Positions 9,908-45,791 of a stretch of 64,000 nucleotides of DNA are shown in pieces (the first letter of the stretch is position 1; each line of letters begins with the position of its first letter). The DNA is from a bacterium (GTDB lineage Bacteria > Patescibacteriota > Patescibacteriia > JAACEG01 > JAGUWE01): NCBI GenBank assembly GCA_043798995.1, contig JAZDOD010000009.1:14015-78014 (forward strand), read 5' to 3'. Under the pieces are notes generated by a model, which searched no databases, had not been told where the DNA came from, and saw only the letters and a program-made list of their open reading frames with translations. The position numbers were made by a program, and so were the translations under genes.

Positions 9908-9915
9908 TTTTTTAT

Positions 9916-10375: not shown

Positions 10376-10437
10376 CCCCCACACCTAATAAGCGCATTTA
10401 AATTATTGACTTTTTCAGTGCTTATTAGGTGTGGGGG
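10376..10437. repeat. large hairpin with 20-bp near-perfect stem
   Basis: cccccacacctaataagcgc (10376-10395) pairs with gtgcttattaggtgtggggg (10418-10437) at 19/20, around a 22-nt loop. A gtcaaccccc direct repeat flanks both sides. Confidence 0.5.
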
Positions 10438-10980
10438 TCAACCCCCGTAGCAAATCCCAACGAGGATTTTTCTAAAGGTGGTCTATATAATTTTTCCAAC
10501 TAAAAGAGGCGCAACTAGCGCCCCTTAATATACAAAACAATGTTATTTATTGGGCTGTTGCGCCTCAGGCCATTGAAACCACTTGGACCCGCCGGTGGCA
10601 GGCAATCAAGACCTTATTTCAAAGACCGGATAGCGCAATTCCGACTTTATGCGCGTTCTTCTACCACCTAGTGGTAAGATCTCTATCCTAAGGATAAAAA
10701 TTTACCGTTTTTCACCTTTTGTAGGTGTTTTTTGTTTTTGTTTATGGTGGTTTAGGTCGGTTCTAAGCCAAATGAGGTAGTAAAAGAAACAGAAATTAAG
10801 CCAAAAATCGCTTTTTGCTTCATTTCTCTATGTAAAAGGGCTTTTTATCTATACTAATTTAATTATACCAGCTTTTAGCCCCTCTGTCAATTCAGTTATT
10901 AACAGGATTTAAAGCTAAAATTTATTCCCATGTCTTAAAATTAAAGGAAAGGATGTGGGAAAATAAGTGTTTATTAAAGG

Positions 10981-11001
10981 TTATCCACAGATTTATCCAC
11001 A
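10981..11001 (+). promoter_or_regulatory. two tandem perfect DnaA boxes (TTATCCACA x2)
   Basis: ttatccacag-at-ttatccaca matches the DnaA-box consensus TTATNCACA exactly, twice, 3 nt apart. Further boxes occur at 11830 (TTATCCACT, 1 mismatch) and 42886 (perfect). Confidence 0.4.
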
Positions 11002-11018
11002 GATTAAATCTCCTTTAA

Positions 11019-11086
11019 TCCCTCTTTTTCAAAGAGGGAACTTTTATTCCCTCCTTTTAAAAAGGAGGGTTAGGGTGGATTTTTGA
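11019..11086. repeat. palindromic hairpin cluster, copy R2
   Basis: tccctctttttcaaagaggga + ccctccttttaaaaaggaggg + ttagggtggattttt, immediately 3' of the minus-strand gene ending at 11103. Probably acts as its terminator. Confidence 0.5.
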
Positions 11087-11102
11087 AATTACTCATCCGA
11101 AA

Positions 11103-11762
11103 TTATTCAATAAATTTGAAAGTGGGGAGGATTTGGTCAATTTCTTCTTTAAAAGAATCGGGATATGTCATTTGATAACTTGTATTATTGACATTAACAA
11201 TAATAAAAGTTAATGGTTTATTATTTGGATATTCCTCCCTTATATTTTTACAATCACCTTCGGTGTATCCATATGGCAGATAATATTTCATTCCCTTTGT
11301 GTTACCGACATTAATACTTTGACTGAAATTATTACTAAGACATAATATGTGATCTAAGTAACTTTGCTCAACAGAGGATTGCTTATTTATACGCAAACCG
11401 TCCGATTGAGTTATTTTATAGATCCCTAATTCTTGGGTTTGTTGAATTTCGTATTTTTTATAGATTTTCGGATACCTAAACTCAAAGCCATAGTCCTCGT
11501 TGCGATAAGTTTGCCAAGTAGAAGTTTCATCTACTTCTTCAAGTTTTAATTGATTTATCTGTGTTTGCAAATCAGTAATTTGTTGGTTTAATTGCTGTAA
11601 TTCTTGCCGATTTTTGTTAATTTCGTTTTTAGCTTCTTCTAATAAAAAATTTTGCCACCAATAAACCCCACTACCAGTTATTAGAGCGGTAAAAATTATA
11701 GCAACAGCTATCAGCCAAATGTTTTTTGAATTTTGGGTTGGTTCGTTAATTTGTTGGTTCAT
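11103..11762 (-). CDS. hypothetical secreted/anchored protein with N-terminal TM and coiled coil
   Basis: 219 aa. N-terminal TM (IWLIAVAIIFTALITGSGVYWW), Q/L-rich coiled coil, then a globular C-terminus. No family recognised. Confidence 0.5.
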   Translation of the reverse strand: MNQQINEPTQNSKNIWLIAVAIIFTALITGSGVYWWQNFLLEEAKNEINKNRQELQQLNQQITDLQTQINQLKLEEVDETSTWQTYRNEDYGFEFRYPKIYKKYEIQQTQELGIYKITQSDGLRINKQSSVEQSYLDHILCLSNNFSQSINVGNTKGMKYYLPYGYTEGDCKNIREEYPNNKPLTFIIVNVNNTSYQMTYPDSFKEEIDQILPTFKFIE

Positions 11763-11842
11763 AATATTTTGTTAATTAAAAAAATTTATATTTTAATCCT
11801 ACCACACCCCCACCCCAAACCGCAAATTATTTATCCACTTTT

Positions 11843-11900
11843 AAAAATCTCCCCCAACCCCTCTTTAACAAAGAGGGGAGGACAAATAAATCCCTCTTAG
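11843..11900. repeat. palindromic hairpin cluster, copy R3
   Basis: aaaaatctccccc, cccctctttaacaaagagggg. An adjacent inverted repeat aatgacaaag...ttgtcatt lies at 11925-11965. Confidence 0.4.
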
Positions 11901-11985
11901 TCTTTCTTTACAACCGGAATGACAAAGATTTTTTTAATTTTAAATTGTCATTTTTATTTTTGATATTTGATTTTTGATTTTGTTA

Positions 11986-13746
11986 TTACACCTCAATCAC
12001 CACCGGCAAAATCATTGGCCGGCGCTGGGTTTTGGAGTATAAGAACTGGCCGATGGAATCGCGGAGCGTGCTTCTGATATAGGCCCAGTTAATCGGAGTT
12101 TCTTTAGTTTTCTGGGCAATAATTTGCTTGACCTTGCGTTTGGTCTGGGCCAAAAGCTCGCCCGATTCTTTCATATAAACAAAGCCGCGCGAAATTATAT
12201 CCGGATCTTGGATTATTTTGCCGGTTTTGCTGTCAATAATGACAATAATAGTAAACATACCGTCTTTGGACATCATCTGGCGATCGCGCAACACTACCTG
12301 CCCGACATCACCGATGCCCAAGCCGTCAACCATAATGTAATTGGTCGGGGCGCGCTTGTCGGTCAGCCGGATATTTTTGGCCGTTACTTCTACTATCTGG
12401 CCATTATCCGGAATGACAATGTTTTTTTCCGGCACGCCGACTGTCTGGGCTAATTCGGCATGGAGCTTTAACATATAATAATTGCCGTGGATAGGAATAA
12501 AAAAAGTAGGCCGGACTAAATTAATCATCATTTTTAAATCCTCAACCTGGGCATGGCCGCCGGCGTGGACATCCATCATCTGGTAATGAATAATTTTGGC
12601 GCCGTGGCGGCTTAAAGTATCTTTAACATGCTGGACGGTGCGTTCATTGCCCGGAATAACCGAGGAAGAAAAGATAACCGTATCGCCGGCTTTAATGCGG
12701 ATAAAGCGATGCTCTTTATTAACAATGCGCATCAAGACGGCCCGGTCTTCGCCCTGGGCGCCGGTGCAGAGCACTAAAATTTTATTGTCCGGCCAGTCGC
12801 GGAGTCGTTCAATATTAATAAAGGTGTCTTTTTTAACCTTAAGATAGCCCAAGTTGCGGGCGATTTCCACATTGGTTTTCATGCTATAACCGTCAACCAC
12901 GACTTTACGATGGTATTTTTCAGCCAGATAAATCAATTCCTGGAGGCGCGAAATTAAAGAAGAGAAAGTCGCGGCAATGATGCGGCCCTCGGCATTTTTG
13001 AAAATATCATCCAAAGTATCCTGAATGGTTTTCTCCGAAATTGAATAGCCGGGTGTATCAGCATCGGTTGAATCGGACATTAAAAGAAGCACGCCGCGGG
13101 CGCCAAGCTGGGCCAGATGAGCAATGTCAGCCGGTTCGTCGCCCACCGGGCTGTGGTCAAATTTAAAGTCGCCGGTATAAATAACGGTGCCGACCGGCGT
13201 ATGCAAAGCTATGCCCAAACTATCCGGAATATTGTGATTGAGGCGAAAAAATTCAGCTTCAAAGCAGCCAAGGCGCACACGATCTTTCTTTTTAACTATA
13301 TTAAGATTAAGATGAGTACCGTTGGGATAATCTTCCTGGCGTTTTTTAATAATAGCCGCCGTCAGCGCCGCGGTATAAATCGGCGGATTGCCGATTTTCG
13401 GCATAATATGGGGGATAGCGCCGATATGATCATAGTGGCCGTGGGTGATAATGACGCCGCGGATGTTTTTGGTTTTTTCCTGAAGATAGGCGGCGTTGGG
13501 AATAATATAATCAATGCCCGGCATATCTTCTTCCGGAAACTGCAAACCCATATCAATAACTATAATATCCGAGTCATACTCAAAAACGGTCATATTTCGA
13601 CCCACTTCCTCCAAACCGCCTAAAGGAATAATTTTTAAAGTATCCTCTGCCGGATGGCTTAAACCCCGATCGATCCTTTGGATTCTGCGAGGCGAACGGT
13701 AATAAGACCTGCGAGTTGTTGATTTTTTGTGTAAAGTTTCAATCAT
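11986..13746 (-). CDS. rnj: ribonuclease J (metallo-beta-lactamase / beta-CASP RNase)
   Basis: 586 aa. HGHYDHIG metallo-beta-lactamase motif, beta-CASP region and RNase J C-terminal domain. N-terminal R/S-rich extension. Confidence 0.85.
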   Translation of the reverse strand: MIETLHKKSTTRRSYYRSPRRIQRIDRGLSHPAEDTLKIIPLGGLEEVGRNMTVFEYDSDIIVIDMGLQFPEEDMPGIDYIIPNAAYLQEKTKNIRGVIITHGHYDHIGAIPHIMPKIGNPPIYTAALTAAIIKKRQEDYPNGTHLNLNIVKKKDRVRLGCFEAEFFRLNHNIPDSLGIALHTPVGTVIYTGDFKFDHSPVGDEPADIAHLAQLGARGVLLLMSDSTDADTPGYSISEKTIQDTLDDIFKNAEGRIIAATFSSLISRLQELIYLAEKYHRKVVVDGYSMKTNVEIARNLGYLKVKKDTFINIERLRDWPDNKILVLCTGAQGEDRAVLMRIVNKEHRFIRIKAGDTVIFSSSVIPGNERTVQHVKDTLSRHGAKIIHYQMMDVHAGGHAQVEDLKMMINLVRPTFFIPIHGNYYMLKLHAELAQTVGVPEKNIVIPDNGQIVEVTAKNIRLTDKRAPTNYIMVDGLGIGDVGQVVLRDRQMMSKDGMFTIIVIIDSKTGKIIQDPDIISRGFVYMKESGELLAQTKRKVKQIIAQKTKETPINWAYIRSTLRDSIGQFLYSKTQRRPMILPVVIEV

Positions 13747-13834
13747 AAAGTATTAAATTAATTTTTAATTTTTAAATAAATTTCAATTTTTAATGTCAAA
13801 TTAATAAATATTTGCCTTGCACTAAATTTATTTG

Positions 13835-13916
13835 TGCCGATGGTGGGAGTTGAACCCACAAGCCTTGCGGCATACGGCTCTGAACCGTACGTGTTTGCCA
13901 ATTTCACCACATCGGC
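13835..13916 (-). tRNA. tRNA-Leu (anticodon CAG), class II with long variable arm
   Basis: Folded by hand from the reverse complement. Acceptor GCCGATG/CATCGGC plus discriminator A. Anticodon loop UUCAGAG. Variable stem-loop GCC-GCAA-GGC. T arm GTGGG-TTCAACT-CCCAC. Confidence 0.8.
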
Positions 13917-14018
13917 GCGGGCCAGGTCTACCAGGCCTGCCCCGTACCTTTCCGCCAGCCGGCGGATCTGGTGCGGGGTTCCACCACTCGCCCAAAATTA
14001 AAAACAAGAAAAAAGTTG
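13917..14018 (-). other. GC-rich (~60%) structured spacer between the two tRNA-Leu genes, possible small ncRNA or processing element
   Basis: Three hairpins can be drawn: UGGUG-N8-CACCA, CCGCC-GGCU-GGCGG, and a GGCC-rich stem. The GC content stands out from background, as for structured RNAs in low-GC genomes. No family assigned. Confidence 0.2.
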
Positions 14019-14103
14019 TGCCGGGGACAGGATTTGAACCTGCACAGAGTTGCCCCCACTGCCACCTCAAGGCAGCGTGTCTACCAGATTCCACCACCCC
14101 GGC
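14019..14103 (-). tRNA. tRNA-Leu (anticodon GAG), class II with long variable arm
   Basis: Acceptor GCCGGGG/CCCCGGC plus A. Anticodon stem-loop CTGCC-TTGAGGT-GGCAG. Long variable arm. T arm GCAGG-TTCAAAT-CCTGT. Confidence 0.8.
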
Positions 14104-14222
14104 TAATGAAAATTAAAAATAAAATATCAAAAATCAAAAACACAAATTAAAAAATTTTTAATTTTGTTTTGTAATTTTGACTTTTGCCTTTTAAATTTTG
14201 GATTAAGCTTCAAATGTAAAAA

Positions 14223-14252
14223 TAAGGAGAGTTATTTAGAAGTCTCCCCTGA
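14223..14252 (-). terminator. rho-independent terminator downstream of rplS
   Basis: Minus strand reads GGGGAGAC...CTCTCC followed by UUAUUUUU. Confidence 0.4.
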
Positions 14253-14277
14253 TTTTATGTGATAGAAGAGAGTTTAA

Positions 14278-14625
14278 CTAAGAGATCTTTTCCTCTTTGA
14301 GTCGTTTAGGATTATCTCTTAAGAAGTAAAGTTTAGCACGTCTTGTTTTAAATTTTTTAACAAGTTCTATTTTAGTAATTGAAGGTAAATGCAAAGGGAA
14401 GATTTTTTCCACGCCCACGCCATAAGATTCCTTGCGGACAATCACGGTTTCCGAAAGGCCGCTGCCGCGGCGGGACAGAACCAGGCCCTCAAAGGCCTGA
14501 ATGCGCTCTTTTAATTCGCCTTTGGGGCTGAGTTCTTTAATTTTTTGATGGATTTTAACCAGCATGCCCGGCTGAATTTCAGTGGGTTTAATTATTTTTT
14601 TTTCCTTAGTTTTTACTTTAATCAT
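14278..14625 (-). CDS. rplS: 50S ribosomal protein L19
   Basis: 115 aa. [36 protein letters not shown] and RRAKLYFLR align with the L19 consensus along the whole length. Confidence 0.9.
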
Positions 14626-34107: not shown

Positions 34108-34527
34108 TTATTTTTCTCCTGCTAGTCTCGCAGGAGTTTTACTTAGTAAGCCCTTTTTCCATCCGCCAAGCATTCTTCCTATTTCTTCAAGCTTTTTGGA
34201 AAGCTCGATGTATTTTTCATTCGGAATAAGCTTGCTTTCCCAGGCGACTTGGACAAAGAATTTCAGGACATCAAGTTTTGATATAGTTTTTCCCAATAAG
34301 ATGAATTTCTGATCAGGCGGAAGGTAGGAGGCAGTAAAACTTAATTCAAGAATTTCAAGAAATGTCCAATCGATTTTTCTTCCAATCCCAAAACGCTCGG
34401 CTCTTCCCAAATTCCGCTGAAGCGCCAGCCAATATTGATAAGAATCCTTAATCTTATGAATTACAACGGGCAAGCCTCGGGGGGGGGCGTTAAAAGTCAT
34501 CTTACTATGAAAATTCAATTGAGCCAT
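34108..34527 (-). CDS. avd: DGR accessory variability determinant (Avd)-like four-helix-bundle protein (23S rRNA intervening-sequence protein family)
   Basis: LPVVIHKIKDSYQYWLALQRNLGRAERFGIGRKI and the C-terminus LIPNEKYIELSKKLEEIGRMLGGW match the Avd family pattern. It is on the strand opposite to TR and RT. Its coding sequence contains a C9 homopolymer (plus-strand G9 at 34489-34497). Confidence 0.65.
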   Translation of the reverse strand: MAQLNFHSKMTFNAPPRGLPVVIHKIKDSYQYWLALQRNLGRAERFGIGRKIDWTFLEILELSFTASYLPPDQKFILLGKTISKLDVLKFFVQVAWESKLIPNEKYIELSKKLEEIGRMLGGWKKGLLSKTPARLAGEK

Positions 34528-38051: not shown

Positions 38052-39071
38052 ATGCCAAAAGACATAAAAAAAGAGAGTAAAAGTCAGGAGCCCAAAAGAG
38101 AAATTGCCGAAGCCATCAGCCAGATTAGGCAACGTTTTGGCGAGGGCTCAATTATGAGATTAGGAGAAGCCAAATCAATGAAAGTTGATGCCATTCCAAC
38201 CGGTTGCCTTTCTTTGGATATTGCTTTAGGAGTCGGTGGACTGCCGCGGGGTAGAGTGGTGGAAATTTTTGGACCCGAGGCCTCGGGTAAAACAACACTG
38301 GCCCAGCATGTCGTCGCCGAGGTGCAAAAAATGGGCGGGATAGCGGCTTTTATTGATGCTGAACATGCCTTAGATCCTGATTACGCCAAGAGAATTGGAG
38401 TCAATATTAATGATTTATTAATTTCCCAGCCGGATACCGGGGAACAAGCGCTGGATATTGTTGAGACCTTAGTGCGTTCCAATGGTGTGGATGTTATTGT
38501 AATTGATTCAGTGGCGGCGCTGACTCCCAAGGCAGAAATTGAAGGCGATATGGGAGATCACTTTATCGGACTGCAGGCTCGCCTGATGAGCCAGGCGCTT
38601 AGAAAACTAACAGCCATTATTGGTAAATCTCGCACTGTGGTCATTTTTATTAACCAGCTTAGAATGAAAATCGGTGTTTTTTTTGGCAATCCAGAGACCA
38701 CCACCGGCGGAGTTGCCTTAAAATTTTATTCCTCGGTTCGTATTGAGGTTCGCCGCAGCGCTCAAATCAAAAAAGGAGAACAAATTATTGGCAACCGGGT
38801 TCGGGCCAAAGTGGTGAAAAATAAAGTAGCTGCGCCATTTAAGAACACTGAATTTGATATTATGTATAACGAAGGCATTTCTCTTTCGGGTGATGTTTTA
38901 GATACAGCCACTAATCTTGGCGTTATAACTAAAGCCGGCAATACCTACAATTATGGTGAAATAAAACTCGGCGTTGGTCGCGAAGCAGCCAAGCAATATT
39001 TACGAGAAAACCCTAAACTCATCCAGGAAATCAAAGCCGCTACCTGGCAGGCGGTGAAGAAAGAGGAATAA
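38052..39071 (+). CDS. recA: recombinase RecA
   Basis: [11 protein letters not shown] Walker [12 protein letters not shown]1/L2 loops. Full-length match. Confidence 0.95.
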
Positions 39072-39183
39072 AAAAATAGAAATTATTTCGCATAATATAC
39101 AATATCAAGTATATTATATGCAAACACTTCACATAAAAACTACTTAGGCGACATTATCTATACAAACATTAAAAGAAGAATGT

Positions 39184-39510
39184 ATGTGGCAAATAATTGG
39201 CTGGATAATTTGGGGCTTATTAGCTTTTTTTGCTATTTCATGGGCATTTGGTTGCCGAACATATGCTAAATCGGGGCAAGGATTTCAATTGGCAACAGGT
39301 GTTCAAACTTTCTATTTTTGGATTATTGCCTTTCTTTTTTTAGTATTTGAGTGGAATAAACTTCACATACTTTGGGTAACTCCGATTGCGTTTTTCACAG
39401 CAAATTTATTGGTTCATGGAGGAATTCCTATTTTGTCACCTCTTGTATTATTTTCCACAAGAATATTTTTATCCATTATTCTTATTGGAGTTAGAAAACA
39501 TAATTCATAG
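39184..39510 (+). CDS. small membrane protein, hypothetical
   Basis: 108 aa with three or four TM helices. First gene of the accessory array. Confidence 0.4.
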   Translation: MWQIIGWIIWGLLAFFAISWAFGCRTYAKSGQGFQLATGVQTFYFWIIAFLFLVFEWNKLHILWVTPIAFFTANLLVHGGIPILSPLVLFSTRIFLSIILIGVRKHNS

Positions 39511-39534
39511 ACAACGTCACCCAACAGTTTATAT

Positions 39535-39554
39535 GGGGTGAGGCATTTGATATT
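39535..39554. repeat. left arm of the 20-bp perfect inverted repeat bracketing gene 39560..39883
   Basis: ggggtgaggcatttgatatt. Its reverse complement occurs at 39881-39900 (19/20). It ends 5 nt before the ATG. Confidence 0.6.
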
Positions 39555-39559
39555 TTTTT

Positions 39560-39883
39560 ATGAATAAGAAAATTCAAACAATTACGATTGTAAAAATTAT
39601 TGCTATTATAATGCTCTTTTGGGCGTTGGCTGATAATCCGTACGGATATTATCAAATTTTGCGTTGGGTTATATGCGGACTAACTGGATATTCGGCTTAT
39701 CTCGCCTATGAGCAAGGTAAAATTGCTTGGGCTTGGATTTTGGGAATTACGGCAATACTTTTTAATCCAATAGCACCTATTTACCTTGATCGTGAAACTT
39801 GGTCAGTATTGGATATAATCGCCGCCACAATAATTTTTACAAGTATATTTAAAATGGAAGTAGTTGCGAAAAAAGAGGAATAA
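39560..39883 (+). CDS. small membrane protein, hypothetical (IR-bracketed cassette gene)
   Basis: 107 aa with three TM helices. Precisely flanked by the 20-bp inverted repeats. Confidence 0.4.
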   Translation: MNKKIQTITIVKIIAIIMLFWALADNPYGYYQILRWVICGLTGYSAYLAYEQGKIAWAWILGITAILFNPIAPIYLDRETWSVLDIIAATIIFTSIFKMEVVAKKEE

Positions 39884-39900
39884 TATCAAATGCCTCACCC
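39881..39900. repeat. right arm of the 20-bp inverted repeat; begins at the stop codon of 39560..39883
   Basis: aatatcaaatgcctcaccc(a). Followed by the motif ctcacccaaattt, which recurs at 42111-42123 after another gene stop. Confidence 0.6.
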
Positions 39901-39982
39901 AAATTTTTGCTCCGTTTCACTTTGCAAAAACTTCAGATACACAGATACGTTTAGCTGAAATAAATTTAATTTTTATTTTTTT

Positions 39983-41239
39983 ATGTCAAATAAATTCAAT
40001 CCATTTAAGCCAAATAGTCCTGTGTTTACGGGAATGTTTGCAGGTAGAGAAAAAGAAATTAACGGTATAGCCAGATCATTATTCCAAACAAAAAATGGAA
40101 ATCCGAACCACATTTTACTTGTTGGTGAACGAGGTATCGGCAAAACATCTCTTTTGTCTTTAGCTAATAATTTTGCAAAAAATGAAATAATATGGGATGA
40201 ACAAAATTATAATTTTTTAACCATCCAAATTAATCTTTCAGAAAAAATGACTATGGCCGATTTGGCTGTATCCTTAAAAATTAAAGTCGAAAGAGAATTA
40301 GAAAAAATAAATCCAGAGATTACATTAATAAAAAAATGCTGGGATCATATTCTTAAAATCGAAGCAGGTGGAATTAAGTATAGAGGTTCCGATAATATGC
40401 AAGATGAAGAACCACAAATTTGTGAAAAATTTACGCATTCTCTAGTTGATACTGTTAAAAAATTAACTCAAGATACTGCAGCGAGCGAAGTTGGTATAAC
40501 CCAAAAAAAAGATGGGATGGTAATTTTAATAGATGAGGCCGACAGAGCAAATAAGTCTCTAAATTTAGGATCATTTTTAAAAAACTTAACGGAAGCTCTA
40601 AGTGTTGAAAATTGTAATAAAATATTATTTATACTTGCTGGACTACCCAATATACGTAAAATCCTTCTAGAAAGTCACGAATCATCATTGAGATTATTTC
40701 AAGAATATGAATTGCCTCCACTCTCAAAAAATGAGACAGATGAAGTAATAACGAGAGGCATTAAAGAAGGAAATGAAGCATCTAATTCAAAAATTACAAT
40801 AGGCCGCAAAGCTTTGGATTTAATTTATATATATTCAGAGGGTTATCCTCATTTTGTACAACAAATTGGGTATTCTTGTTTTGAGGTAAATTCTGATGAA
40901 GAAATTGACGAAGAAGATATTAAAAAAGGCTTTTTTATGAAAGGAGGCGCCTTAGACCTAATTGGTAATAGGGGTTACAAAAAGTTATATTATTCAGACA
41001 TAAACGTTGATTCGCAAAGAGAAATTCTTGATATTATGGCCGATAATTGGAATGATTGGGTATCGCGAGACAATATAATTAAAAAATTTTCAGGAAAAAA
41101 AACCGCACTTAATAATGGGTTAAGAGCATTAAAAGAAAAAAGTATTATTTTAATAAAAGAAGGTGAGAGGGGAAAATATAGATTACAATGGGCGAGTTTT
41201 GCTTTTTGGATAAAGAATCATAAAAAAATACAAAAATAA
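39983..41239 (+). CDS. AAA-type ATPase (archaeal-ATPase / ORC-Cdc6-like P-loop NTPase) with C-terminal winged-helix-like domain
   Basis: Walker A GERGIGKTSLL. Walker B MVILIDEADR. The C-terminus RDNIIKKFSGKKTALNNGLRALKEKSIILIKEGERGKYRL looks like a wHTH. The exact family is not assignable. Confidence 0.5.
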   Translation: MSNKFNPFKPNSPVFTGMFAGREKEINGIARSLFQTKNGNPNHILLVGERGIGKTSLLSLANNFAKNEIIWDEQNYNFLTIQINLSEKMTMADLAVSLKIKVERELEKINPEITLIKKCWDHILKIEAGGIKYRGSDNMQDEEPQICEKFTHSLVDTVKKLTQDTAASEVGITQKKDGMVILIDEADRANKSLNLGSFLKNLTEALSVENCNKILFILAGLPNIRKILLESHESSLRLFQEYELPPLSKNETDEVITRGIKEGNEASNSKITIGRKALDLIYIYSEGYPHFVQQIGYSCFEVNSDEEIDEEDIKKGFFMKGGALDLIGNRGYKKLYYSDINVDSQREILDIMADNWNDWVSRDNIIKKFSGKKTALNNGLRALKEKSIILIKEGERGKYRLQWASFAFWIKNHKKIQK

Positions 41240-41254
41240 AAATTAAATTAACAT

Positions 41255-41345
41255 CAGCTAACAGCGTGTATCGGGTTCGGTCTTCTCCGAAAGCCTCCGC
41301 CAAATTTGCCTCCGCTACGCTACGCAAACTTTAGATATTCCTAAA
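41255..41345. repeat. post-stop junction element, copy C of the TAACAGCG...AACGTTA family
   Basis: Starts gctaacagcgtg and ends ctaaacgttaagg. Internal direct repeat cctccgcc/cctccgct. Immediately follows the stop at 41239. Confidence 0.35.
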
Positions 41346-41385
41346 CGTTAAGGTGAAATTTAATTTTTAATTTAATAAAATTGAT

Positions 41386-41817
41386 ATGGACTCAAACAAA
41401 TTGCCTCGTAACATTATTTTAGTTAGCATCTTAATAATCGCCGTATCCATTGGTTATTATTATTTAATTTTTCTGCCTCAAAAAGAACGTAATAGAATAG
41501 AAGCCGAAAATCAAAAACGCGTTGAATCTATTAAAAATGATTGCATTGACAGAGTTTTAAAAGAAATGAAAAACGAACATCCTAAAATGGAAACTGAGGA
41601 AATCACTAGTTTTCGAATTGCTAGTGATCGAGGTTGTTTTATTGAGGCGGGTTGCATGAAAGGTGTTCAAGATAATTATTTTAAAGCTAAATTTGATGAG
41701 TGTAATAATGAATATTATAATACTTGTTTAGCAGGACTTAAAAACAAAGTAGATGAAATGATTGAGGCAGAAAAATTAAAAAGAATCAATGAATGTATAA
41801 ATCTATATTCAAATTAA
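41386..41817 (+). CDS. hypothetical membrane-anchored Cys-rich protein
   Basis: N-terminal TM anchor and a C-terminal domain with six Cys residues (CIDRV...CFIEAGC...CNNEYYNTC...CIN). Confidence 0.4.
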   Translation: MDSNKLPRNIILVSILIIAVSIGYYYLIFLPQKERNRIEAENQKRVESIKNDCIDRVLKEMKNEHPKMETEEITSFRIASDRGCFIEAGCMKGVQDNYFKAKFDECNNEYYNTCLAGLKNKVDEMIEAEKLKRINECINLYSN

Positions 41818-41820
41818 AAA

Positions 41821-41860
41821 TATAACTTCACTTAACACGGTTTATCCGATTCGCTCGCTA
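41821..41860. repeat. post-stop junction element, copy A (ATAACACGGTTTATCCGATTCGC)
   Basis: cacttaacacggtttatccgattcgctcgc, 4 nt after the stop at 41817. A near-identical copy B lies at 43600-43645. Confidence 0.45.
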
Positions 41861-41881
41861 AAAATATTAATTCGAAAATTT

Positions 41882-42076
41882 ATGGACAATAAACAATTAA
41901 CTAAGGATGATCTATTTAGGTGGCTATCAAATAAAATTGGTGGCGCGTCTATGGACGTTATTTTAGAAACTTTTTTAAAATTTAGTGATAGAGAATCATT
42001 ATTTTGTTTTGTAAAAGAGCTTGAAAATGAAGGGCTTATTTACAAATATAATGGTGAATTTTGGATAAAAAAATAA
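41882..42076 (+). CDS. small hypothetical protein (64 aa, winged-helix-like)
   Basis: MDNKQLTKDDLFRWLSNKIGGASMDVILETFLKF...GLIYKYNGEFWIKK. No family assignable. Confidence 0.35.
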   Translation: MDNKQLTKDDLFRWLSNKIGGASMDVILETFLKFSDRESLFCFVKELENEGLIYKYNGEFWIKK

Positions 42077-42195
42077 ATGCCTATTTTATATTCATAAATA
42101 TTTTTAGCTCGCTCACCCAAATTTGGTAGTAGTGAGCACTGGCGCGTAAATTATACCACTGCCAAATTTCGGCTATCCCAAGCCATTAGCCGCTA

Positions 42196-42831
42196 TTGCC
42201 TTTAAAGAGGATAAAAAATATGGGATTATTTTCACTTGATTATCAAAACATGCCAGGCCAGTGTATCTATGCCAAAGGTGGCTTGAAGTTCCGTGCCGAC
42301 GAAGATGCACTACGCCACTACTTTGCCCCAATTTTGCCTTATGTGTCTCTAAACGATCTTATCGGCGAAAGTGTTTTCTGGTCTATGCTACCATCAACAG
42401 TGGCTATCTGGACATTTCCTTTTCTTCTTCATAGTCAAGGAATCCTATTTGCTATAATCGCCACACTAGCCCTCTATTTAGTTGCGGAAATAGGTCATAT
42501 GGCTTTCTATATAAAGCCGCTCAATTACGTAGTTTTCATTTTAGGAAATCAGTTCCTCTCGTTGGTCGTTTATATTATCTGGGCAGTAATACTCATTCTC
42601 TCTGGTTCTATAGTTGGAGCTATAATTTTGGGGGTGTGGTTTTTGTTTTTTGCGCTTGGTCTTAGTCAAATAATATTTCTTTTGCCAATAATTCCCTTCC
42701 TTACAAAACTTTTTTCCTTACCACCATCTGATCAGGTGTTAAAAAACGTTGGCTGGCATTGTGCTAGAAAATTTGGAATTGACCCAACTAAATGGAAGAT
42801 GTATGACCAAAAAACAGGCAACGGCGGCTAA
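42196..42831 (+). CDS. hypothetical membrane protein
   Basis: 211 aa with about five TM helices. Confidence 0.4.
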   Translation: MPLKRIKNMGLFSLDYQNMPGQCIYAKGGLKFRADEDALRHYFAPILPYVSLNDLIGESVFWSMLPSTVAIWTFPFLLHSQGILFAIIATLALYLVAEIGHMAFYIKPLNYVVFILGNQFLSLVVYIIWAVILILSGSIVGAIILGVWFLFFALGLSQIIFLLPIIPFLTKLFSLPPSDQVLKNVGWHCARKFGIDPTKWKMYDQKTGNGG

Positions 42832-42900
42832 CAGCGGATAAAAGGGAAATTAAAGATTTCCCCAAATTGCCTTCGGCAACTTCTTTTATCCACAAAACGT
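42826..42900. repeat. post-stop junction element, copy D, imperfect ~70-bp palindrome containing a perfect DnaA box
   Basis: gctaacagcggataaaag...cttcttttatccacaaaacgtta. The arms ggataaaag and cttttatcc pair, and there is an internal hairpin gggaaat...atttccc. It overlaps the stop at 42831. Confidence 0.4.
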
Positions 42901-42924
42901 TATATGAAATAATAAAAAAATTTA

Positions 42925-43596
42925 TTGCTTATGAATGACTTTAATGATATTGTCGAGAGACATAGAAAAAGAGGCGAAGAAATTGTAGAAAAGTTTAAAC
43001 AGGACTCAGAAAGGAGGGAAGCCAAAATGGCTAAAGGCGTAGAGCGACTTGAGGATTTATCAATGCAGAATTTCGCCTCTTGGCGAGATTATCTATACAA
43101 ATACTTCAGCGTTATCTTATTACTTATCGGAGCCACAGGAGTTTTGCAATCGGAAAAGTTTAATGACCCATGGTTTAAAGCAGGTATATTCACAACTCTG
43201 GTTGGAGTCTTCATTGGCTATGTTTTTATCAATATATATTTCTATATAGAAAGAAAGTGGCTCCAAGCGCAAAATATCATTGGCTTAGAAGGAACTTACT
43301 CTTTACATGAACACCCCAAAGCAAAAACGGGCGATATCCGAGAAGCAATTATCCTCCATCAGCTAGATTATATAGAACAGATCAAGAAAAGATTAGAGGA
43401 AGCTAAAGCGAATAATGACAAAAAAATGATAAGACATTACAAAAAGGTTATTAGGATTAATAAGCGATTAAACTTTTCCATCAAATTTACTGGGGAGCAG
43501 TTTGGTATAATAGAACACATTTGGATATCAGGGACAATACTAAGCTTATTCCTAACGATCTCTGGTATAGCAATTGTTTTCTTAAACATTCGATAA
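42925..43596 (+). CDS. hypothetical membrane protein with N-terminal coiled-coil segment
   Basis: 223 aa with four TM helices. Confidence 0.4.
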   Translation: MLMNDFNDIVERHRKRGEEIVEKFKQDSERREAKMAKGVERLEDLSMQNFASWRDYLYKYFSVILLLIGATGVLQSEKFNDPWFKAGIFTTLVGVFIGYVFINIYFYIERKWLQAQNIIGLEGTYSLHEHPKAKTGDIREAIILHQLDYIEQIKKRLEEAKANNDKKMIRHYKKVIRINKRLNFSIKFTGEQFGIIEHIWISGTILSLFLTISGIAIVFLNIR

Positions 43597-43599
43597 AAT

Positions 43600-43645
43600 T
43601 TTTGATTACATCCAATAACACGGTTTATTCGATTCGCGTTTGTTA
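43600..43645. repeat. post-stop junction element, copy B (ATAACACGGTTTATTCGATTCGCG), ends in GTTAAAT
   Basis: ccaataacacggtttattcgattcgcgtttgttaaat, which is 22/23 identical to copy A over the core. Starts 4 nt after the stop at 43596. Confidence 0.45.
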
Positions 43646-43966
43646 AATAAATTATTTTTTAATAATTACAGTCCTATGAATTTAGTAAGCACTAACCTCA
43701 AAAAAATCATTTTAGTAACTAGTGTAATATTAATGGTTGGAACAGTTAGTACAAGGGCATTGTTTCTACGAGAAGGGAATATTATAATTGGTTCCCTGTT
43801 CTCAATAGGATTTGGACTTTTAATCTCTCTTGGAGTATTGATTACTATACAAAAAATATTTTTCAATAAAAATATTAAAAAATGCTCTTTTTGTTCTGAA
43901 GAAATTTTAGCTGATGCAATCAAATGTAGATATTGCGGTGAATTTTTAAATAAAAAAATAAAATGA
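43640..43966 (+). CDS. membrane protein with C-terminal zinc ribbon
   Basis: Two TM helices, then CSFCSEEILADAIKCRYCGEF. Confidence 0.4.
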   Translation: MLNKLFFNNYSPMNLVSTNLKKIILVTSVILMVGTVSTRALFLREGNIIIGSLFSIGFGLLISLGVLITIQKIFFNKNIKKCSFCSEEILADAIKCRYCGEFLNKKIK

Positions 43967-44130
43967 AAGACTATATTTTTTATCCATTACTTACAGCCAT
44001 TTTCTGGATTCTTATGTCTTTATTTGTATATAAAGACGATTCGACTCAAGAAAAAACTAAGATGGCAATTGGCGCCGGTGTTATCGGTTTGATTATGGGC
44101 ATTTTTTTCTATTTTTTTGGATTTTACTAA
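43963..44130 (+). CDS. small TM protein (55 aa), start overlaps upstream stop (ATGA)
   Basis: MKDYIFYPLLTAIFWILMSLFVYKDDSTQEKTKMAIGAGVIGLIMGIFFYFFGFY. Below the ORF-track size cutoff. Confidence 0.3.
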   Translation: MKDYIFYPLLTAIFWILMSLFVYKDDSTQEKTKMAIGAGVIGLIMGIFFYFFGFY

Positions 44131-44382
44131 TTTCATTCAAAAATAAAAATATTTAGTAAACGCTCATCCAAATGCGCTTTCGCTAAAGCTCCAGCGCTCC
44201 AGGTGTTATACAAAAAAGTTCAACCAAAAAAGACGGAAAATATAGCCGTCTTTTTAAAATGTCATCCTGATCCGCCAGTCGGCGGATTCAGGATTTCTTA
44301 ATTAATATATCAAAATGTCGAGATAAGTTCGTCCCAAAGAGATTCTGAAACAAGTTCAGAATGACAAATTAATTATTTAAAC

Positions 44383-44431
44383 TTGACAGGATATTTTACT
44401 TATGTTAGTATTGTAATACAATGTATTACAA
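44383..44431 (+). promoter_or_regulatory. promoter TTGACA-17-TAGTAT with adjacent perfect palindromic operator TTGTAATACAatgTATTACAA
   Basis: -35 at 44383-44388 and -10 at 44406-44411. A 10+10-bp perfect inverted repeat at 44411-44431 lies 17 nt before the antitoxin start. This layout is typical of RHH-antitoxin autoregulation. Confidence 0.45.
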
Positions 44432-44447
44432 TTAATCAAAAAAAAAT

Positions 44448-44663
44448 ATGCGTGAAATAATCAATATTTCCCTGCCTTCTCCGCTGGTCAAAACCGTTAA
44501 AAAAGCGGTTAAAGAAGGCGATTATATGAGTGTTAGCGAATTTTTTCGTGATTTACTGCGGGACTGGCAGAAAGGTAAATTATTAAGCGAGCTCAACGAA
44601 AGCCGCGAAGAAATTAGATCCGGCAAGGGCAAAACCTTAAAATCCTTAAAGGATTTAAGATAG
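44448..44663 (+). CDS. ribbon-helix-helix (ParD/CopG-like) antitoxin
   Basis: 71 aa. INISLPSPLVKTVKKAVKEGDYMSVSEFFRDLLRDWQ has a beta-alpha-alpha pattern. It lies 8 nt upstream of a RelE/ParE-family toxin gene. Confidence 0.6.
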   Translation: MREIINISLPSPLVKTVKKAVKEGDYMSVSEFFRDLLRDWQKGKLLSELNESREEIRSGKGKTLKSLKDLR

Positions 44664-44671
44664 TTTTCTGT

Positions 44672-44932
44672 ATGAATATTGTTTATAGCTCAAAATTTGC
44701 GCGTGAATACAGAAAATTACCTAACAATATAAAAACCATTGCCGAGCAACAAGAAAAAATATTTCGCAAAAATCCTTTTGACCAAAAACTAAAAACTCAC
44801 AAACTAAAAGGCAGGTTGAAAGGATTTTTATCTTTTTCTATTGGTTATCAGTACCGAATAATTTTTGAATTCGGAAAAGATAAAAAAACCGTCTATTTTC
44901 ATTTTGTTGGTAACCATGGTATTTATCAATAA
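44672..44932 (+). CDS. RelE/ParE-family toxin (type II TA)
   Basis: 86 aa. KTHKLKGRLKGFLSFSIGYQYRIIFEF...KKTVYFHFVGNHGIY matches the RelE/ParE/YafQ pattern (KL.G....E.RIG.YR.I..I..D..V.I..IGHR..IY). Confidence 0.7.
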   Translation: MNIVYSSKFAREYRKLPNNIKTIAEQQEKIFRKNPFDQKLKTHKLKGRLKGFLSFSIGYQYRIIFEFGKDKKTVYFHFVGNHGIYQ

Positions 44933-45227
44933 CAAATCAATAACCACATTAAGTATAACCAAAAAAGACGGATTACATTTTCCGTCTTTTTTGATGTCAC
45001 CCTGAACTTGTTTCAGGGTCTCTTTTAGGACTTCCATAGATGCTGAAATAAATTCAGCATGACAGATAAAAAATTGTTCGAGATTGCTACTCCGCCAGAG
45101 GCGGATCGCAATGACATTTTAGTTTAAGTTTTAAAATTAGTTCATTAAAAATTATTTAAAAATTGTCCACCGGAGGCGGATCCGCCTTGGGCGGAAAAAT
45201 TTAAAATTTAAAATTAAAAATTTTAAA

Positions 45228-45791
45228 TTACACTCTCTCCACATACAACCCCGTATCGGTATTAACGCGGAGAATGTCTCCTTCTTTGACAAAAAGCGGG
45301 GCGTTAACAATAAGGCCGGTTTCTAAAGTGACTTGTTTGGTAGCGCTGCCTTGGGCAGTATCCCCGCGCACGGCTGGCGGAGAAGAAATAACCTTGTAAT
45401 CAATTTTTTTTGGTAGTTCAATATTTACCGGCTGGTTATTAAAATACAAAACTATAACTTCTATGCCTTCTTTTAAAAATTTAACCCGTTCATTTAATTG
45501 TTCGGCGCTGAAATTAAACTGCTCAAAAGTTTCGTTATCCATAAAAAAATAACCTTGAGCGTCTTGATAAAGAAAATTAGCTTTGTGTTTTTCTAAGTCG
45601 GCTTCCTCAACTTTATCGCCCGGCTTGAAATTAATTTCCAAGACCTTGCCGCTTAAGAGATTTTTCAGTTTTGTCTGCATCACCGGTTTTCTTTGCTGGC
45701 AACGCATAAAATGAGCCTCTACCACTTGGTAGGGCTCATTGTTTATTTTTAAACATAATCCTTGCTTGATGTCGTTAAGCGAAGAAATCAT
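45228..45791 (-). CDS. efp: elongation factor P
   Basis: 187 aa starting MISSLNDIKQGLCLK. KOW-like N-terminus and two OB domains. The start is trimmed from the longer track ORF, whose extension translates repeat R4. Confidence 0.85.
   Translation of the reverse strand: MISSLNDIKQGLCLKINNEPYQVVEAHFMRCQQRKPVMQTKLKNLLSGKVLEINFKPGDKVEEADLEKHKANFLYQDAQGYFFMDNETFEQFNFSAEQLNERVKFLKEGIEVIVLYFNNQPVNIELPKKIDYKVISSPPAVRGDTAQGSATKQVTLETGLIVNAPLFVKEGDILRVNTDTGLYVERV

Follow-up and report, generated by a model that had tools for sequence, protein, structure and literature searches.

A proposed integron-like gene-cassette array with non-canonical sites, located between recA and a conserved terminator in a Patescibacteria genome

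In integrons, cassettes carry as their signature cognate inverted ends (GTT on the left, AAC on the right), and the attC site has a two-sided unpaired spacer, an L box with a bulged base and 5 nt between R'' and L''. Integron remnants (CALINs) without an intI close by are common (PMC4889954). For the promoter-early stem-loops (PeSL) of T4-type phages, ORF shuffling by homologous recombination has been shown, and PeSL-flanked ORFs give rise to mini-circles via the phage recombination machinery alone (PMC2839356).

The locus described here belongs to a Patescibacteria MAG, i.e. a bacterium of the candidate phyla radiation (CPR), and was analysed within a stretch of 64 kb (hereafter the window). 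A 5.1-kb island (39.1–44.2 kb), with recA on one side and a conserved terminator on the other, comprises eight units with nine small, tightly packed ORFs, all co-oriented on the + strand, in agreement with the nine-gene array of a preliminary description. Our verdict is that the island resembles an integron cassette array but has sites of a non-canonical kind. That the island is a hypervariable, promoterless cassette array, working as integron arrays do but on a non-canonical site family (family E), is a reading that we hold with belief and doubt in about equal parts. The preliminary description had proposed an integron or other cassette array. This proposal is partly supported. Its cassette-array part holds up, and more strongly than a sequence-only reader could see: the units have cognate ends, close relatives lack the array or have another one, an attC-like covarying repeat family is present, related mini-cassettes occur in phage and the junctions are not U-tract terminators. 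Its integron part in the strict sense finds no support: an attC model drew a blank, the geometry differs, neither the 64 kb nor 29.5 kb of a phage contig yielded an integrase, and a DnaA box is most likely there by coincidence. The features are as follows.

39072..39183, + strand: leader S0, from the recA stop to the first unit, holding unit 1's left arm (CTTAGGCGAC...) and sigma-70-like hexamers (TTCGCA-17-TATATT, 39087-39115)
39184..39510, + strand: unit 1 ORF, 108 aa, without a Pfam family, predicted to be a membrane protein
39511..39559, + strand: short junction S1, ACCCAAC-A-GTTTATAT, followed by unit 2's left arm (GGGTGAGGCATTTGATATT)
39560..39883, + strand: unit 2 ORF, 107 aa, DUF6804, bracketed by a perfect 19-nt inverted repeat (39536-39554 / 39882-39900)
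39873..39958, + strand: junction S2, partial E element (43.6 bits with the E covariance model R3, of which it is a training sequence), with motif CTCACCCAAAT, hairpin B (AAATTTTTGC/GCAAAAACTT), L' GATACAC, spacer AGATAC and R' GTTTAGC
39983..41239, + strand: unit 3 ORF, 418 aa, AAA_22/AAA_16 STAND-like ATPase, bracketed by a 34-nt inverted repeat of 88% (39951-39984 / 41228-41261; outer ends GTTTAGCTGA / TCAGCTAAC)
41252..41356, + strand: junction S3, full E element (R3 75.3 bits, training member); first half R'' CAGCTAAC, AGC, L'' GTGTATC and hairpin A, second half GCCTCCGCCAAATTTGCC hairpin B, L' GATATTC, CTAAAC and R' GTTAAGG
41386..41817, + strand: unit 4 ORF, 143 aa, Cys-rich and with a single TM segment predicted; flanks GTTAAGGTGAAATTTAATTTTTAATTT / AAATTAAAAATATAACTTCACTTAAC
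41818..41881, + strand: short junction S4, ACTTAAC-ACG-GTTTATCCGATTCGC, with a 22-mer at 41833-41854; the next unit opens GCTAAAAATATT
41882..42076, + strand: unit 5 ORF, 64 aa; ends GCTAAAAATATT / AATATTTTTAGC, GCT/AGC replacing GTT/AAC
42077..42219, + strand: junction S5, long hairpin opened by CTCACCCAAATTTGG, end GCTATCC-CAAGCC-ATTAGCC; linked to family E by shared motifs only and not picked up by R3
42220..42831, + strand: unit 6 ORF, 203 aa, multi-pass membrane protein; ends TTAGCCGCTATTGCC / GGCAACGGCGGCTAA, its stop codon falling within R'' (GGC TAA C)
42822..42908, + strand: junction S6, full E element (R3 87.4 bits, training member), with R helix TAACA/CGTTA, AAAA bulge, L helix of 9-11 bp (GGATAAAAG/CTTTTATCC) and hairpins A (GGGAAAT/ATTTCCC) and B (AAATTGCC/GGCAACTT)
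42931..43596, + strand: unit 7 ORF, 221 aa, membrane and coiled-coil
43597..43675, + strand: short junction S7, CAATAAC-ACG-GTTTATTCGATTCGC-GTTTGTTAAAT, with the 22-mer at 43616-43637
43676..44130, + strand: unit 8, two overlapping ORFs of 96 aa (TM, weak Zn-ribbon match) and 55 aa (TM); flanks GCGTTTGTTAAATA / TATTTAGTAAACGC
44131..44215, + strand: junction S9, distal end of the array, AGTAAAC-GCTCATCCAAATGC...-TCCAGGT-GTTATAC
44216..44270, + strand: conserved intrinsic terminator closing the array, AAAAAGACGG...CCGTCTTTTT, first copy of a 55-nt direct repeat
44448..44932, + strand: RHH antitoxin and YafQ/RelE-like toxin, lying between the two copies of the 55-nt direct repeat (the second at 44951-45005)

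Every unit (8/8) has its own flanking inverted repeat, usually GTT... at the left and ...AAC at the right, as in integron cassettes, although the AAC/GTT triplets are missing from units 2 and 5, which counts against the cassette reading. The two ends of each cassette match one another and not those of the neighbouring cassette: the upstream flank paired best with the unit's own downstream flank in all eight units (permutation p 3e-5), as against 0-2 cases in five control gene arrays (p >= 0.05), and when the ends were anchored, own ends matched at 10.6 of 14 positions, whereas non-cognate ends reached 6.6 and the R' from the same junction 6.1. The general cassette layout is a GTTnnnn(GAAAT) start, a complementary ...nnnnAAC and an imperfect palindrome.

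Junctions S2, S3 and S6 are members of the structured repeat family E; they are the only matches of R3 in the window, and statistically supported members make up just three of the eight window junctions, a point against the reading. S2 is homologous to S3 (nhmmer E-value 2.7e-4 in 1.3 Mb). The L box of S3 itself pairs poorly (5/7), while its L'' matches the L' of S2 perfectly, a match not expected from a strict G|TT crossover. The element noted earlier as an imperfect palindrome at 42826-42900 was borne out as S6 (42822-42908; DNA fold -13.7 to -17.4 kcal/mol, z -3.0). The DnaA box reported within it, TTATCCACA, is indeed present at 42886, but is probably incidental, because it belongs to the L' arm and the window holds three copies (0.36 expected), the other two in tandem at 10981/10993.

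The E fold consists of the R helix (TAACA/CGTTA), a one-sided bulge of 3-7 nt, an L helix of 8-13 bp of free sequence and a variable tip that often bears a conserved CCAAATTG...CAACTT hairpin. This structure is conserved and covaries: perfect L helices occur in eight different sequences, all 11 pairs of the L helix have changed on both sides with 90% of cells paired, and the covariation score, with counts taken from a model-fitted alignment, was 0.366 compared with 0.10 in shuffles (0/500 reached it) and 0.02-0.06 in slid controls. The element folds better as bottom strand (10/11 elements; mean -2.0 kcal/mol), whereas the bottom strand was better in just 26-41% of random sense-strand segments, and at two positions nearly all members have A.C on the top strand, corresponding to G.T on the bottom. 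These observations bear on an RNA-level reading, in which the repeats are intercistronic processing or stability hairpins of one polycistronic mRNA, the pairing of 5' and 3' flanks of cistrons serves RNase III cutting or translational control, and strain differences stem from unrelated processes such as natural transformation. Nine co-oriented, packed ORFs with a single terminator (44222-44256) and none internal would suit it, as would stems that overlap the regions of start and stop codons. However, the better-folding strand is the antisense one, A.C mismatches are conserved within the sense-strand helices, the elements sit exactly where the gene content of relatives differs and no repeat matched Rfam; we regard this explanation as improbable. 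The possibility that the junctions are ordinary terminators was also checked: they are not U-tract terminators.

A canonical integron remnant (CALIN) would have true but divergent attC sites, callable by the IntegronFinder model, at its junctions, and an IntI-family integrase elsewhere in the genome or on a co-resident element. Several R boxes do fit RYYYAAC / GTTRRRY (ACTTAAC, ACCCAAC and GTTAAAT in the window; ATCTAAC / GTTAGAT in phage), each cassette carries its own R' remainder, CALINs without a neighbouring intI are frequent (PMC4889954), and a toxin-antitoxin pair adjoins the array, as in chromosomal integrons. Family E also resembles attC in its L'-R' spacer (5-7 nt), its orientation relative to the ORFs and its bottom-strand bias. 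It differs in having a one-sided bulge of 3-7 nt instead of a two-sided spacer, an L box without the bulged base and an R''-L'' spacing of 1-3 nt. Moreover, a class-1 attC covariance model that we built from 11 sites recovered 16/16 control attCs (>= 49.7 bits), but its hits across the whole window included no junction (best hit 10.2 bits, elsewhere); an island-only search gave three non-junction sites (<= 5.1 bits), and in phage E elements only the R box matched (<= 10.9 bits). No tyrosine recombinase was found in the 64-kb window with an IntI1 query (its sequence 100% correct), as the preliminary description had stated for integrases; searches of the window, of 29.5 kb of the 35-kb phage contig, of L162 and of L113 yielded no recombinase of any type, no locus examined had an IntI-like ORF, and the literature searched had no integrons of Patescibacteria. 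We consider a CALIN unlikely, on a par with the PeSL-like alternative discussed below.

The motifs noted earlier in this island are real, and all are restricted to it: TAACACGGTTTATYCGATTCGC has exactly two copies in 64 kb (41833 and 43616), CTCACCCAAATTT is exact at 39894 and 42112 and GCTAACAGCG at 41257 and 42827, both GCTAACAGCG junctions ending in AAACGTTA. The 22-mer had been placed 4 nt after the stops, but actually starts 16 and 20 nt after them, and its first copy, given as ATAACACGG, reads TTAACACGG. S4 and S7 have a 22-nt stretch in common, with 21 identical positions, and none would be expected by chance for TAACACGGTTTATYCGATTCGC even with 3 mismatches. By themselves, the shorter motifs are near chance level (with mismatches allowed, 6 matches vs 4.1 expected for CTCACCCAAATTT and 3 vs 2.1 for GCTAACAGCG), and their significance derives from their position and from the longer homologies (S2/S3, S4/S7), outside which the window junctions have 10-13 nt in common. 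S1, S4 and S7 are too short for a proper fold, which speaks against canonical integron membership: their cores measure 13-35 nt and fold at just -3 to -5 kcal/mol (S4, which aligns with the 5' half of S3, at -3.1 kcal/mol). These and the motif-only junctions (S1, S4, S5, S7 and S9) may be reduced or decayed sites.

The ancestral gene order is recA followed by efp, with a gap of 0.1-0.6 kb in six CPR relatives vs 6.1 kb here. At this hotspot, close relatives have units, have none or have different ones; the array turns over and is not a fixed block. Three relatives have RecA 93-97% identical: L093 is 'empty', with the same terminator as the window directly after recA; L094 contains one unrelated 92-aa ORF, then ...AAGC-GTTATAT and the same terminator; and L095 is homologous to the first ~95 nt of leader S0 (to about 39166) and then diverges. 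In L101 (EF-P 87% identical), a close relative in which the E covariance model found a homologue, the same terminator has a full E directly in front of it, whose bottom strand folds at -20.7 kcal/mol (z -4.8). The S9 boundary (R', AAAGTTCAA and terminator) is conserved in L094 and L101. The relatives' contigs are short and in 5/5 cases break at the locus (0.15-0.7 kb from recA or efp), which fits a hotspot but could also be due to REP-like hairpins (44.26-45.2 kb).

Outside the model's own members, R3 matched L162 (57.7 bits) and seven elements within 2.1 kb of L127 (21.5-51 bits; E-values 1.5e-8 to 0.16), and the end of viral contig L113 agrees with S2 at 40/46 nt (87%). The family bounds mini-cassettes in phage genomes too: with the E covariance model, an array of at least nine was found on a phage contig between the terminase and portal genes, with conserved stem-loop repeats between its tiny ORFan genes. 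In L207 the layout is GTTAGATGAAAT, RBS, ORF and CATCATCTAAC-A-L''...L'-AGAAC|GTTA, and in 8/9 cassettes the best partner of R'' is the R' that precedes it (11.0/14 vs 8.7). Phage element E8 and S9 have 12 nt (TCATCCAAATGC) in common. In the phage array every ribosome-binding site has E directly 5' of it, and ORFs frequently extend into E, an arrangement that would also fit the RNA-level reading. PeSL-like shuffling with no recombinase of its own, in which E serves as a conserved linker between genes and homologous recombination at its conserved ends, by general or phage pathways, deletes, inserts and swaps ORFs, agrees with the make-up of the phage array, with the lack of a nearby recombinase, with mini-circles that need phage machinery alone (PMC2839356) and with recA adjoining the island. 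Yet E ends share only ~8-20 nt, homologous exchange would neither maintain the match of R'' to the cassette's own 5' end nor select for compensatory L-helix changes or a bottom-strand bias, and E has neither a U-tract terminator nor a consistent sigma-70 promoter (32 promoter-like sites vs 29 expected, none recurrent at junctions). This explanation, too, seems unlikely to us.

Under the cassette-array reading, a structure-specific site-specific recombinase would excise and insert cassettes at the ...AAC|GTT... boundary, which would explain why the 5' end of each cassette carries its own R' remainder. Neither circular cassettes nor direct products of recombination were seen. Its gene may be located elsewhere, in the host genome or on a phage, and phages may shuttle cassettes between genomes.

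A selfish palindromic repeat (MITE or REP-like) spread between the pre-existing genes of an ordinary accessory island would account for elements that are imperfect palindromes (60-140 nt) and whose outer arms are AT-rich, and REP-like hairpins do lie just downstream (44.26-45.2 kb). Against this, no E copy occurs beyond the island in 64 kb, and in 50 CPR loci (0.66 Mb) E is absent except in L101, at the same locus; there is one element per gene in a single orientation, no target-site duplications were seen and repeat insertion would not produce cassette-specific ends, making this the least probable of the explanations and, to us, a very improbable one. Beyond the terminator, the toxin-antitoxin pair is a separate variable insertion that is missing from L101.

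The window, part of a Patescibacteria (CPR) MAG, encodes a RecA with 75–79% identity to that of Kerfeld-, Uhr- and Falkowbacteria-like genomes; exact look-ups of the window proteins RecA, ORF3 and P0001 found no record. The CPR gene order at this locus is ftsK, rodZ and recA (forward strand) followed by efp, rpsR, ssb and rpsF (reverse strand). The recA–efp gap spans 0.1–0.6 kb in six relatives and 1–3.4 kb in others, vs. 6.1 kb in the window, where it holds an island of eight units with a GC content of 30–36% (vs. ~40% nearby). The array is bordered by recA on one side and, on the other, by a toxin–antitoxin pair and then efp:

39184–44130, nine co-oriented ORFs
44222–44256, terminator
3′ of the terminator and followed by efp, RHH/YafQ-like toxin–antitoxin pair

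The cassette proteins include a DUF6804 protein, an AAA_22/AAA_16 STAND-like ATPase, several small membrane proteins and one that weakly matches a Zn-ribbon. PADLOC and PHROGs searches with the nine proteins returned no defence or phage function beyond the weak ATPase and Zn-ribbon matches, and the gene content is mostly uninformative. The closest homologue of the AAA ATPase (76% identity) is encoded in a different CPR genome (L081), in another accessory island (9544–14365) that is inserted between murC and murB and also holds genes for DUF4145, flavin reductase, Zn-finger and PDDEXK_3 proteins. As that island has neither flanking repeats nor any element of the structured repeat family found at the window junctions (hereafter E), it lends no support to the occurrence of one cassette in two contexts.

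Single ORFs of the window island are enclosed by inverted repeats (19 nt and perfect around ORF2; 34 nt, 88%, around ORF3; 21 nt, 86%, around ORF4). When all upstream flanks were compared with all downstream flanks by local alignment, the own downstream flank was the best partner for all eight units (mean 31.0 vs. 16.9; permutation p = 3e-5). Five control gene arrays, three in the window and two in relatives' islands, gave 0–2 cognate-best cases (p ≥ 0.05). With anchored ends the cognate partner was best in seven of the eight units, the right end of a unit scoring 10.6/14 against its own left end vs. 6.1/14 against the following left end in the same junction. Left arms mostly start with (C)GTT and right arms mostly finish with AAC. 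The ORF-side arm R″ finishes with AAC at six of the eight junctions that lie 3′ of units (S1, S3, S4, S6, S7 and S9), the 5′ end is GTT in units 3, 4, 7 and 8 (4/8; ATT, CTT, GCT or GGG in the others), and the array-terminal far-side arm R′ in S9 is also GTT. In units 2 and 5, GGG/CCC and GCT/AGC replace GTT/AAC. The ORF-side arm L″ of S3 pairs perfectly with the far-side arm L′ of S2, across ORF3, and not with its own L′. Since in integrons a crossover at G|TT gives each cassette the remainder of R′ as its 5′ end, these cognate ends follow the pattern of integron cassettes, whose 5′ end is complementary to their own inverse core, as is the case for the window units and for the phage cassettes described below.

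Junctions S6 and S3 and an element in the close relative L101 are built alike. Their R helix (CTAACA/CGTTAG) is followed by a one-sided bulge of 3–4 nt, rich in A, and by an L helix that reaches 11 bp and varies in sequence by member. A three-way junction then bears hairpin A, which is variable, and hairpin B, which is conserved in sequence (CCAAATTGC...GCAACTT) and has a stem that grows on both arms together (TT/AA, TTT/AAA, TTTTT/AAAAA). Covariation was measured on a 14-sequence alignment fitted to the covariance model of E (R3; S2, S3 and S6 were among its training sequences), in which the AAC and GTT triplets are invariant. The L helix showed two-sided changes at 11/11 pairs with 90% of cells paired, and the covariation score was 0.366 vs. 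a shuffle mean of 0.10 (0/500 shuffles reached the observed value) and 0.02–0.06 in slid controls. The same elements were returned by a model-free scan for AACA...YGTT with at least eight contiguous Watson–Crick pairs adjoining, and their eight L-helix sequences are all different.

Within the window R3 matched S6, S3 and S2 only, making three of the eight junctions statistically supported members of E, and in 50 CPR loci (0.66 Mb) it matched nothing except L101, a relative's version of this locus. Motif and nhmmer searches also gave no copy outside the island in the 64-kb window. On the sequence searched, a dispersed selfish repeat would hardly be restricted to the recA–efp locus in this way, and a MITE or REP-like nature of E is extremely unlikely. 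IMG/VR was scanned with a degenerate pattern and the matches were then screened with R3, which recovered sequences that had not been used in training: one element (57.7 bits) in the phage L162, which encodes a P22-type portal and a large terminase subunit; seven (21.5–51 bits) in the viral locus L127, all inside 2.1 kb; and a truncated element at the end of the viral locus L113. Junction S2 and the tail of L113 agree at 40/46 nt (87% identity), which ties the bacterial island to phage DNA.

A single 35-kb IMG/VR contig (IMGVR_UViG_3300028595_000036) comprises the phage loci L127, L207 and L210 and encodes a small terminase subunit, a 776-amino-acid intein-bearing ORF, a portal-like DUF4055 protein, a Mu-F-like protein, Bro-N and a Tad6-like protein. 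A TTGACA-17-TATGAT promoter precedes a row of at least nine mini-cassettes, which separates the portal gene from the 776-amino-acid ORF. The cassettes have the form GTTAnnnGAAAT, RBS, ATG...ORF...(C)ATCAnnTAAC-A-L″...L′-(A/G)GAAC|GTTA, with E lengths of ~54 to 160 nt. Some ORFs run deep into E, and one cassette is nearly devoid of an ORF. This array independently replicates the cognate-end signature of the window: R″ pairs best with the preceding R′, i.e. the 5′ end of its own cassette, in 8/9 cases (11.0/14 vs. 8.7 with the R′ of the same element).

Several features of this contig were recorded alongside. The 776-amino-acid ORF (L207 10001–12331) carries an intein-type LAGLIDADG/Hom_end insertion, adjoins the small terminase gene and is probably the large terminase. 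The Tad6-like protein (L207 8701–9432; Pfam E = 9e-41) belongs with inhibitors of type I Thoeris. In L207 12415–14670 several cassette proteins are small and Cys-rich, and ORFs read through R″–L″ in one frame, giving a recurring peptide xNS(D/E)Y (SNSDYAK, HNSDYMPPSAQ, PNSEYMPPSAQ) that may be either functional or a by-product of the conserved DNA.

The bottom strand of E, antisense to the ORFs, is predicted to be the more stable one in 10/11 elements (mean difference −2.0 kcal/mol), compared with 26–41% of 450 random sense-strand segments from the same loci. At two helix positions nearly all members have A·C on the top strand, which corresponds to G·T on the bottom strand. Both observations argue against a sense-RNA structure. 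A role as sense RNA, which would hardly yield the cognate-end signature, the covariation or the strand bias, is in our view very unlikely. Rfam 15 gave no credible match in window 38900–45300 (E ≤ 10) or in the phage array (E ≤ 1), and a hammerhead or other small ribozyme was rejected for want of a conserved core and of an Rfam match. In attC sites the bottom strand is the recombined strand, a parallel that for E rests on folding energies.

The locus was compared in close relatives whose RecA is 93–97% identical to that of the window (contigs stopping 215–682 nt past recA) or whose EF-P is 87–88% identical (contigs stopping 156–269 nt past efp).

The recA–efp locus in close relatives
L093, RecA 95%: no unit; ~130 nt after recA, the same terminator as at window 44222–44256
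L094, RecA 97%: one unrelated 92-amino-acid ORF with its own flanking repeat, GGCAATTTA/TAAATTGCC
L094, distal end: after the ORF, a hairpin, AAGC-GTTATAT-GAATAAAGTTCAATT and the terminator
L095, RecA 93%: ~95 nt of leader in common with the window, divergent beyond
L101, EF-P 87%: a full junction element right before GAAAAAGTTCAACC and the terminator; no toxin–antitoxin module

The array is therefore not a fixed block in all relatives, a possibility that the preliminary description had raised against its own cassette reading; the relatives (93–97% RecA), on short contigs, have no unit, one unit or different units. Comparison with these short contigs yielded no case of the same cassette in two different arrays. 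In the window the array closes with GTGTTATAC-AAAAAAGTTCAACC plus the terminator, so the distal boundary is conserved. As L101 has one terminator and no toxin–antitoxin module, the toxin–antitoxin segment of the window is a variable insertion in its own right, distinct from the array.

A 55-nt direct repeat (71% identity; 44216–44270 and 44951–45005) contains the terminator and brackets the toxin–antitoxin module, and several REP-like hairpins (GTCAYCCTGA...TCAGRATGAC) lie between its copies (44216–45005) together with this RHH/YafQ-like module. The motif TTCGCATAAT, often inside the hairpin GCATAATAACGAGTTATGC, occurs at 39087–39100 in the leader between the recA stop and the first unit (S0) and is intergenic in L093, L095 and L081; a promoter or regulatory element specific to the lineage is one possible reading.

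The shared junction motifs noticed initially do exist, and within the 64-kb window they are restricted to the island. The 22-mer TAACACGGTTTATYCGATTCGC had been misplaced, its two window copies starting 16 and 20 nt past the stops and not 4 nt; zero copies are expected even at three mismatches. Motifs of 10–13 nt are, one by one, near chance once mismatches are allowed, and their weight derives from their positions and from the longer homologies. S2 (39873–39958) aligns to the 3′ two-thirds of S3 over ~90 nt (nhmmer E = 2.7e-4 in 1.3 Mb), while S4 and S7 align to its 5′ third; the S4/S7 motif, as an exact 20-mer, is absent from the viral contigs. Ordinary U-tract terminators do not account for the junctions, where S6 alone has a weak terminator-like hairpin, and a promoter scan found 32 sites vs. 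29.0 ± 5.3 expected, none recurrent at junctions. A sigma-70 promoter within E was rejected on account of inconsistent spacing. The DnaA box reported in S6 is indeed a perfect match, but the sequence is part of the L′ arm and we do not read it as a functional box.

Short junctions with the 5′ half (S1, S4, S7), junctions with the 3′ half plus a CCAAAT motif (S2, S5, S9) and full junctions (S3, S6) succeed one another with a period of three, for which the probability by chance is ~1 in 81, and the flanking ORFs are mutually unrelated. S1, S4 and S7 are too short to fold. The 5′-half and 3′-half junctions alternate strikingly, and we considered the insertion of an ORF into the hairpin A loop of a split E (S1+S2, S4+S5, S7+S9); the L boxes of the halves are not complementary, so the halves are preferably read as separate short or decayed sites.

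Integrons are the textbook example of gene capture cassette by cassette, and their folded single-strand attC sites are among the rare recombination sites that are recognised by shape and not by sequence. Like an integron, the array in the window is a row of small ORFs in one orientation, most of them lacking a promoter, with an imperfect palindrome behind each, and it shares with integrons a strain-variable content and an adjacent toxin–antitoxin module. Both E and attC are bounded by ...YTAAC next to the ORF and by GTTR... at the opposite end, vary in length and centre, and keep complementarity rather than sequence. Their geometry differs. In E the R″–L″ spacing is 1–3 nt (vs. 5 in attC) and the L′–R′ spacing 4–7 nt; the bulge is one-sided, whereas attC has a two-sided unpaired central spacer (about 5 and 5–6 nt); and the L helix is perfect over 8–13 bp with no bulge, whereas attC has extrahelical L-box bases. 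E is further unlike attC in the extension of its R helix to 9–30 bp via a conserved GAAAT/ATTTC, in an internal hairpin (CCAAATTG...CAACTT) that is conserved in many members, in ORFs that can extend deep into the site, and in its hosts, a Patescibacteria genome and phage genomes.

Membership of the attC family was assessed with a covariance model (R2) built from 11 attCs of class-1 integrons on plasmids as a surrogate for the IntegronFinder model. An earlier version with trimmed loops (R1) had been limited to matches of ~60 nt and missed long control attCs. R2 recovered 16/16 attCs in seven integron loci (49.7–70.9 bits), long and non-training sites included, and nothing else above 15 bits in these loci. 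Its best match in the window, 10.2 bits, is at chance level and none fell at junctions; in the island searched by itself there were three matches, all ≤ 5.1 bits and all outside junctions; and in phage E elements it aligned the R box alone (≤ 10.9 bits). R2 is narrow, being made of GC-rich proteobacterial sites, so this negative does not exclude distant attCs.

The statement that the window lacks an integrase was borne out: phmmer with IntI1 (a query 100% identical to plasmid intI1) and XerD against ORFs of at least 80 amino acids found nothing at E ≤ 10, and Pfam scans of flanking ORFs found no recombinase. The same queries detected no tyrosine recombinase in L162, in L113, in the relatives' contigs or in L207 plus L210, which make up 29.5 kb of the 35-kb phage contig. 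Clusters of attC without an integrase are known as CALINs (Cury et al. 2016, PMC4889954), defined as at least two attC sites within 4 kb by IntegronFinder with no integron integrase nearby (PMC4889954). The island resembles a CALIN in having no integrase nearby; with R2 negative at its junctions, a canonical CALIN served by an IntI encoded elsewhere seems unlikely. Of the integron features tested, the AAC/GTT ends, the cognate 5′ ends and the bottom-strand folding are present here, and an R2 match, the attC spacer geometry and an adjacent integrase are not.

Two further modular systems offer comparisons. The pdif (XerC/XerD) modules of Acinetobacter plasmids are tandem small gene modules, toxin–antitoxin modules included, between inverted sites of 28 bp (11-6-11) that are conserved in sequence and alternate in orientation. 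Pdif modules and island units are alike in their small size, inverted flanking copies, tandem arrangement and the presence of toxin–antitoxin genes, but the flanking repeats of the island are module-specific in sequence and all junctions have one orientation. On inspection, no 11-6-11 core was seen at the junctions, and dif/pdif sites were rejected.

The promoter-early stem-loop (PeSL) cassettes of T4-type phages combine a strong sigma-70 early promoter with a terminator stem-loop and recombine by homology (Arbiol et al. 2010, PMC2839356; Comeau et al. 2014, PMC4122927). PeSL and E are both conserved stem-loop repeats beside small ORFans (for PeSL, in hyperplastic regions of phage genomes), both lie where close relatives differ by insertions, deletions or replacements, and no dedicated recombinase has been identified for either. 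Unlike PeSL, E has no consistent promoter and no U-tract, its complementary ends are cassette-specific and bounded by AAC/GTT, its folding favours the antisense strand, and it is present in a bacterial chromosome too. Homologous shuffling of the PeSL kind (PMC2839356) is an unlikely explanation, as homology-driven exchange would hardly yield cognate ends, covariation and strand bias.

What fits best, at about even odds in our judgement, is a site-specific, structure-directed, integron-like cassette system with a distinct site family and a putative recombinase. More tentatively, E may represent an undescribed cassette-exchange system of CPR bacteria and their phages, in which structure-specific, single-strand (bottom-strand) sites analogous to attC, but outside that family, would be served by a recombinase that is not an IntI, or by a very divergent one acting in trans, with phages as both shuttle and reservoir of mini-cassettes. 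The literature searched describes no integrons in Patescibacteria and no attC-like cassette arrays in phages. Such a system would be the first integron-like one for Patescibacteria as well as for phages and would imply an independent or deeply divergent origin of attC-type recombination. Cognate AAC|GTT ends, a covarying hairpin and a bottom-strand bias amount to integron logic with a clearly different geometry. That they turn up in phages and in an episymbiotic bacterium of ultra-small size, and with no integrase in the vicinity, widens the possible range of such systems. A suggested route of exchange between CPR bacteria and their phages is a fixed chromosomal hotspot, through which genes for small membrane proteins, ATPases and possibly for defence or counter-defence would pass. 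E provides a concrete site model that can be searched for further arrays and for the missing recombinase, and it bears on the question of where cassettes and attC come from.

Two other features of the window were noted. An ORF of 139 amino acids on the reverse strand (34108–34527) has a bAvd-like Pfam match (E = 7e-14), a fold known both from proteins of 23S rRNA intervening sequences and from the accessory proteins that belong to diversity-generating retroelements. Two further perfect DnaA boxes (TTATCCACA) stand in tandem at 10981–11001 (starts 10981 and 10993, 12 nt apart), a few kb from the cumulative GC skew minimum (~15–16 kb), and may be part of a replication origin.
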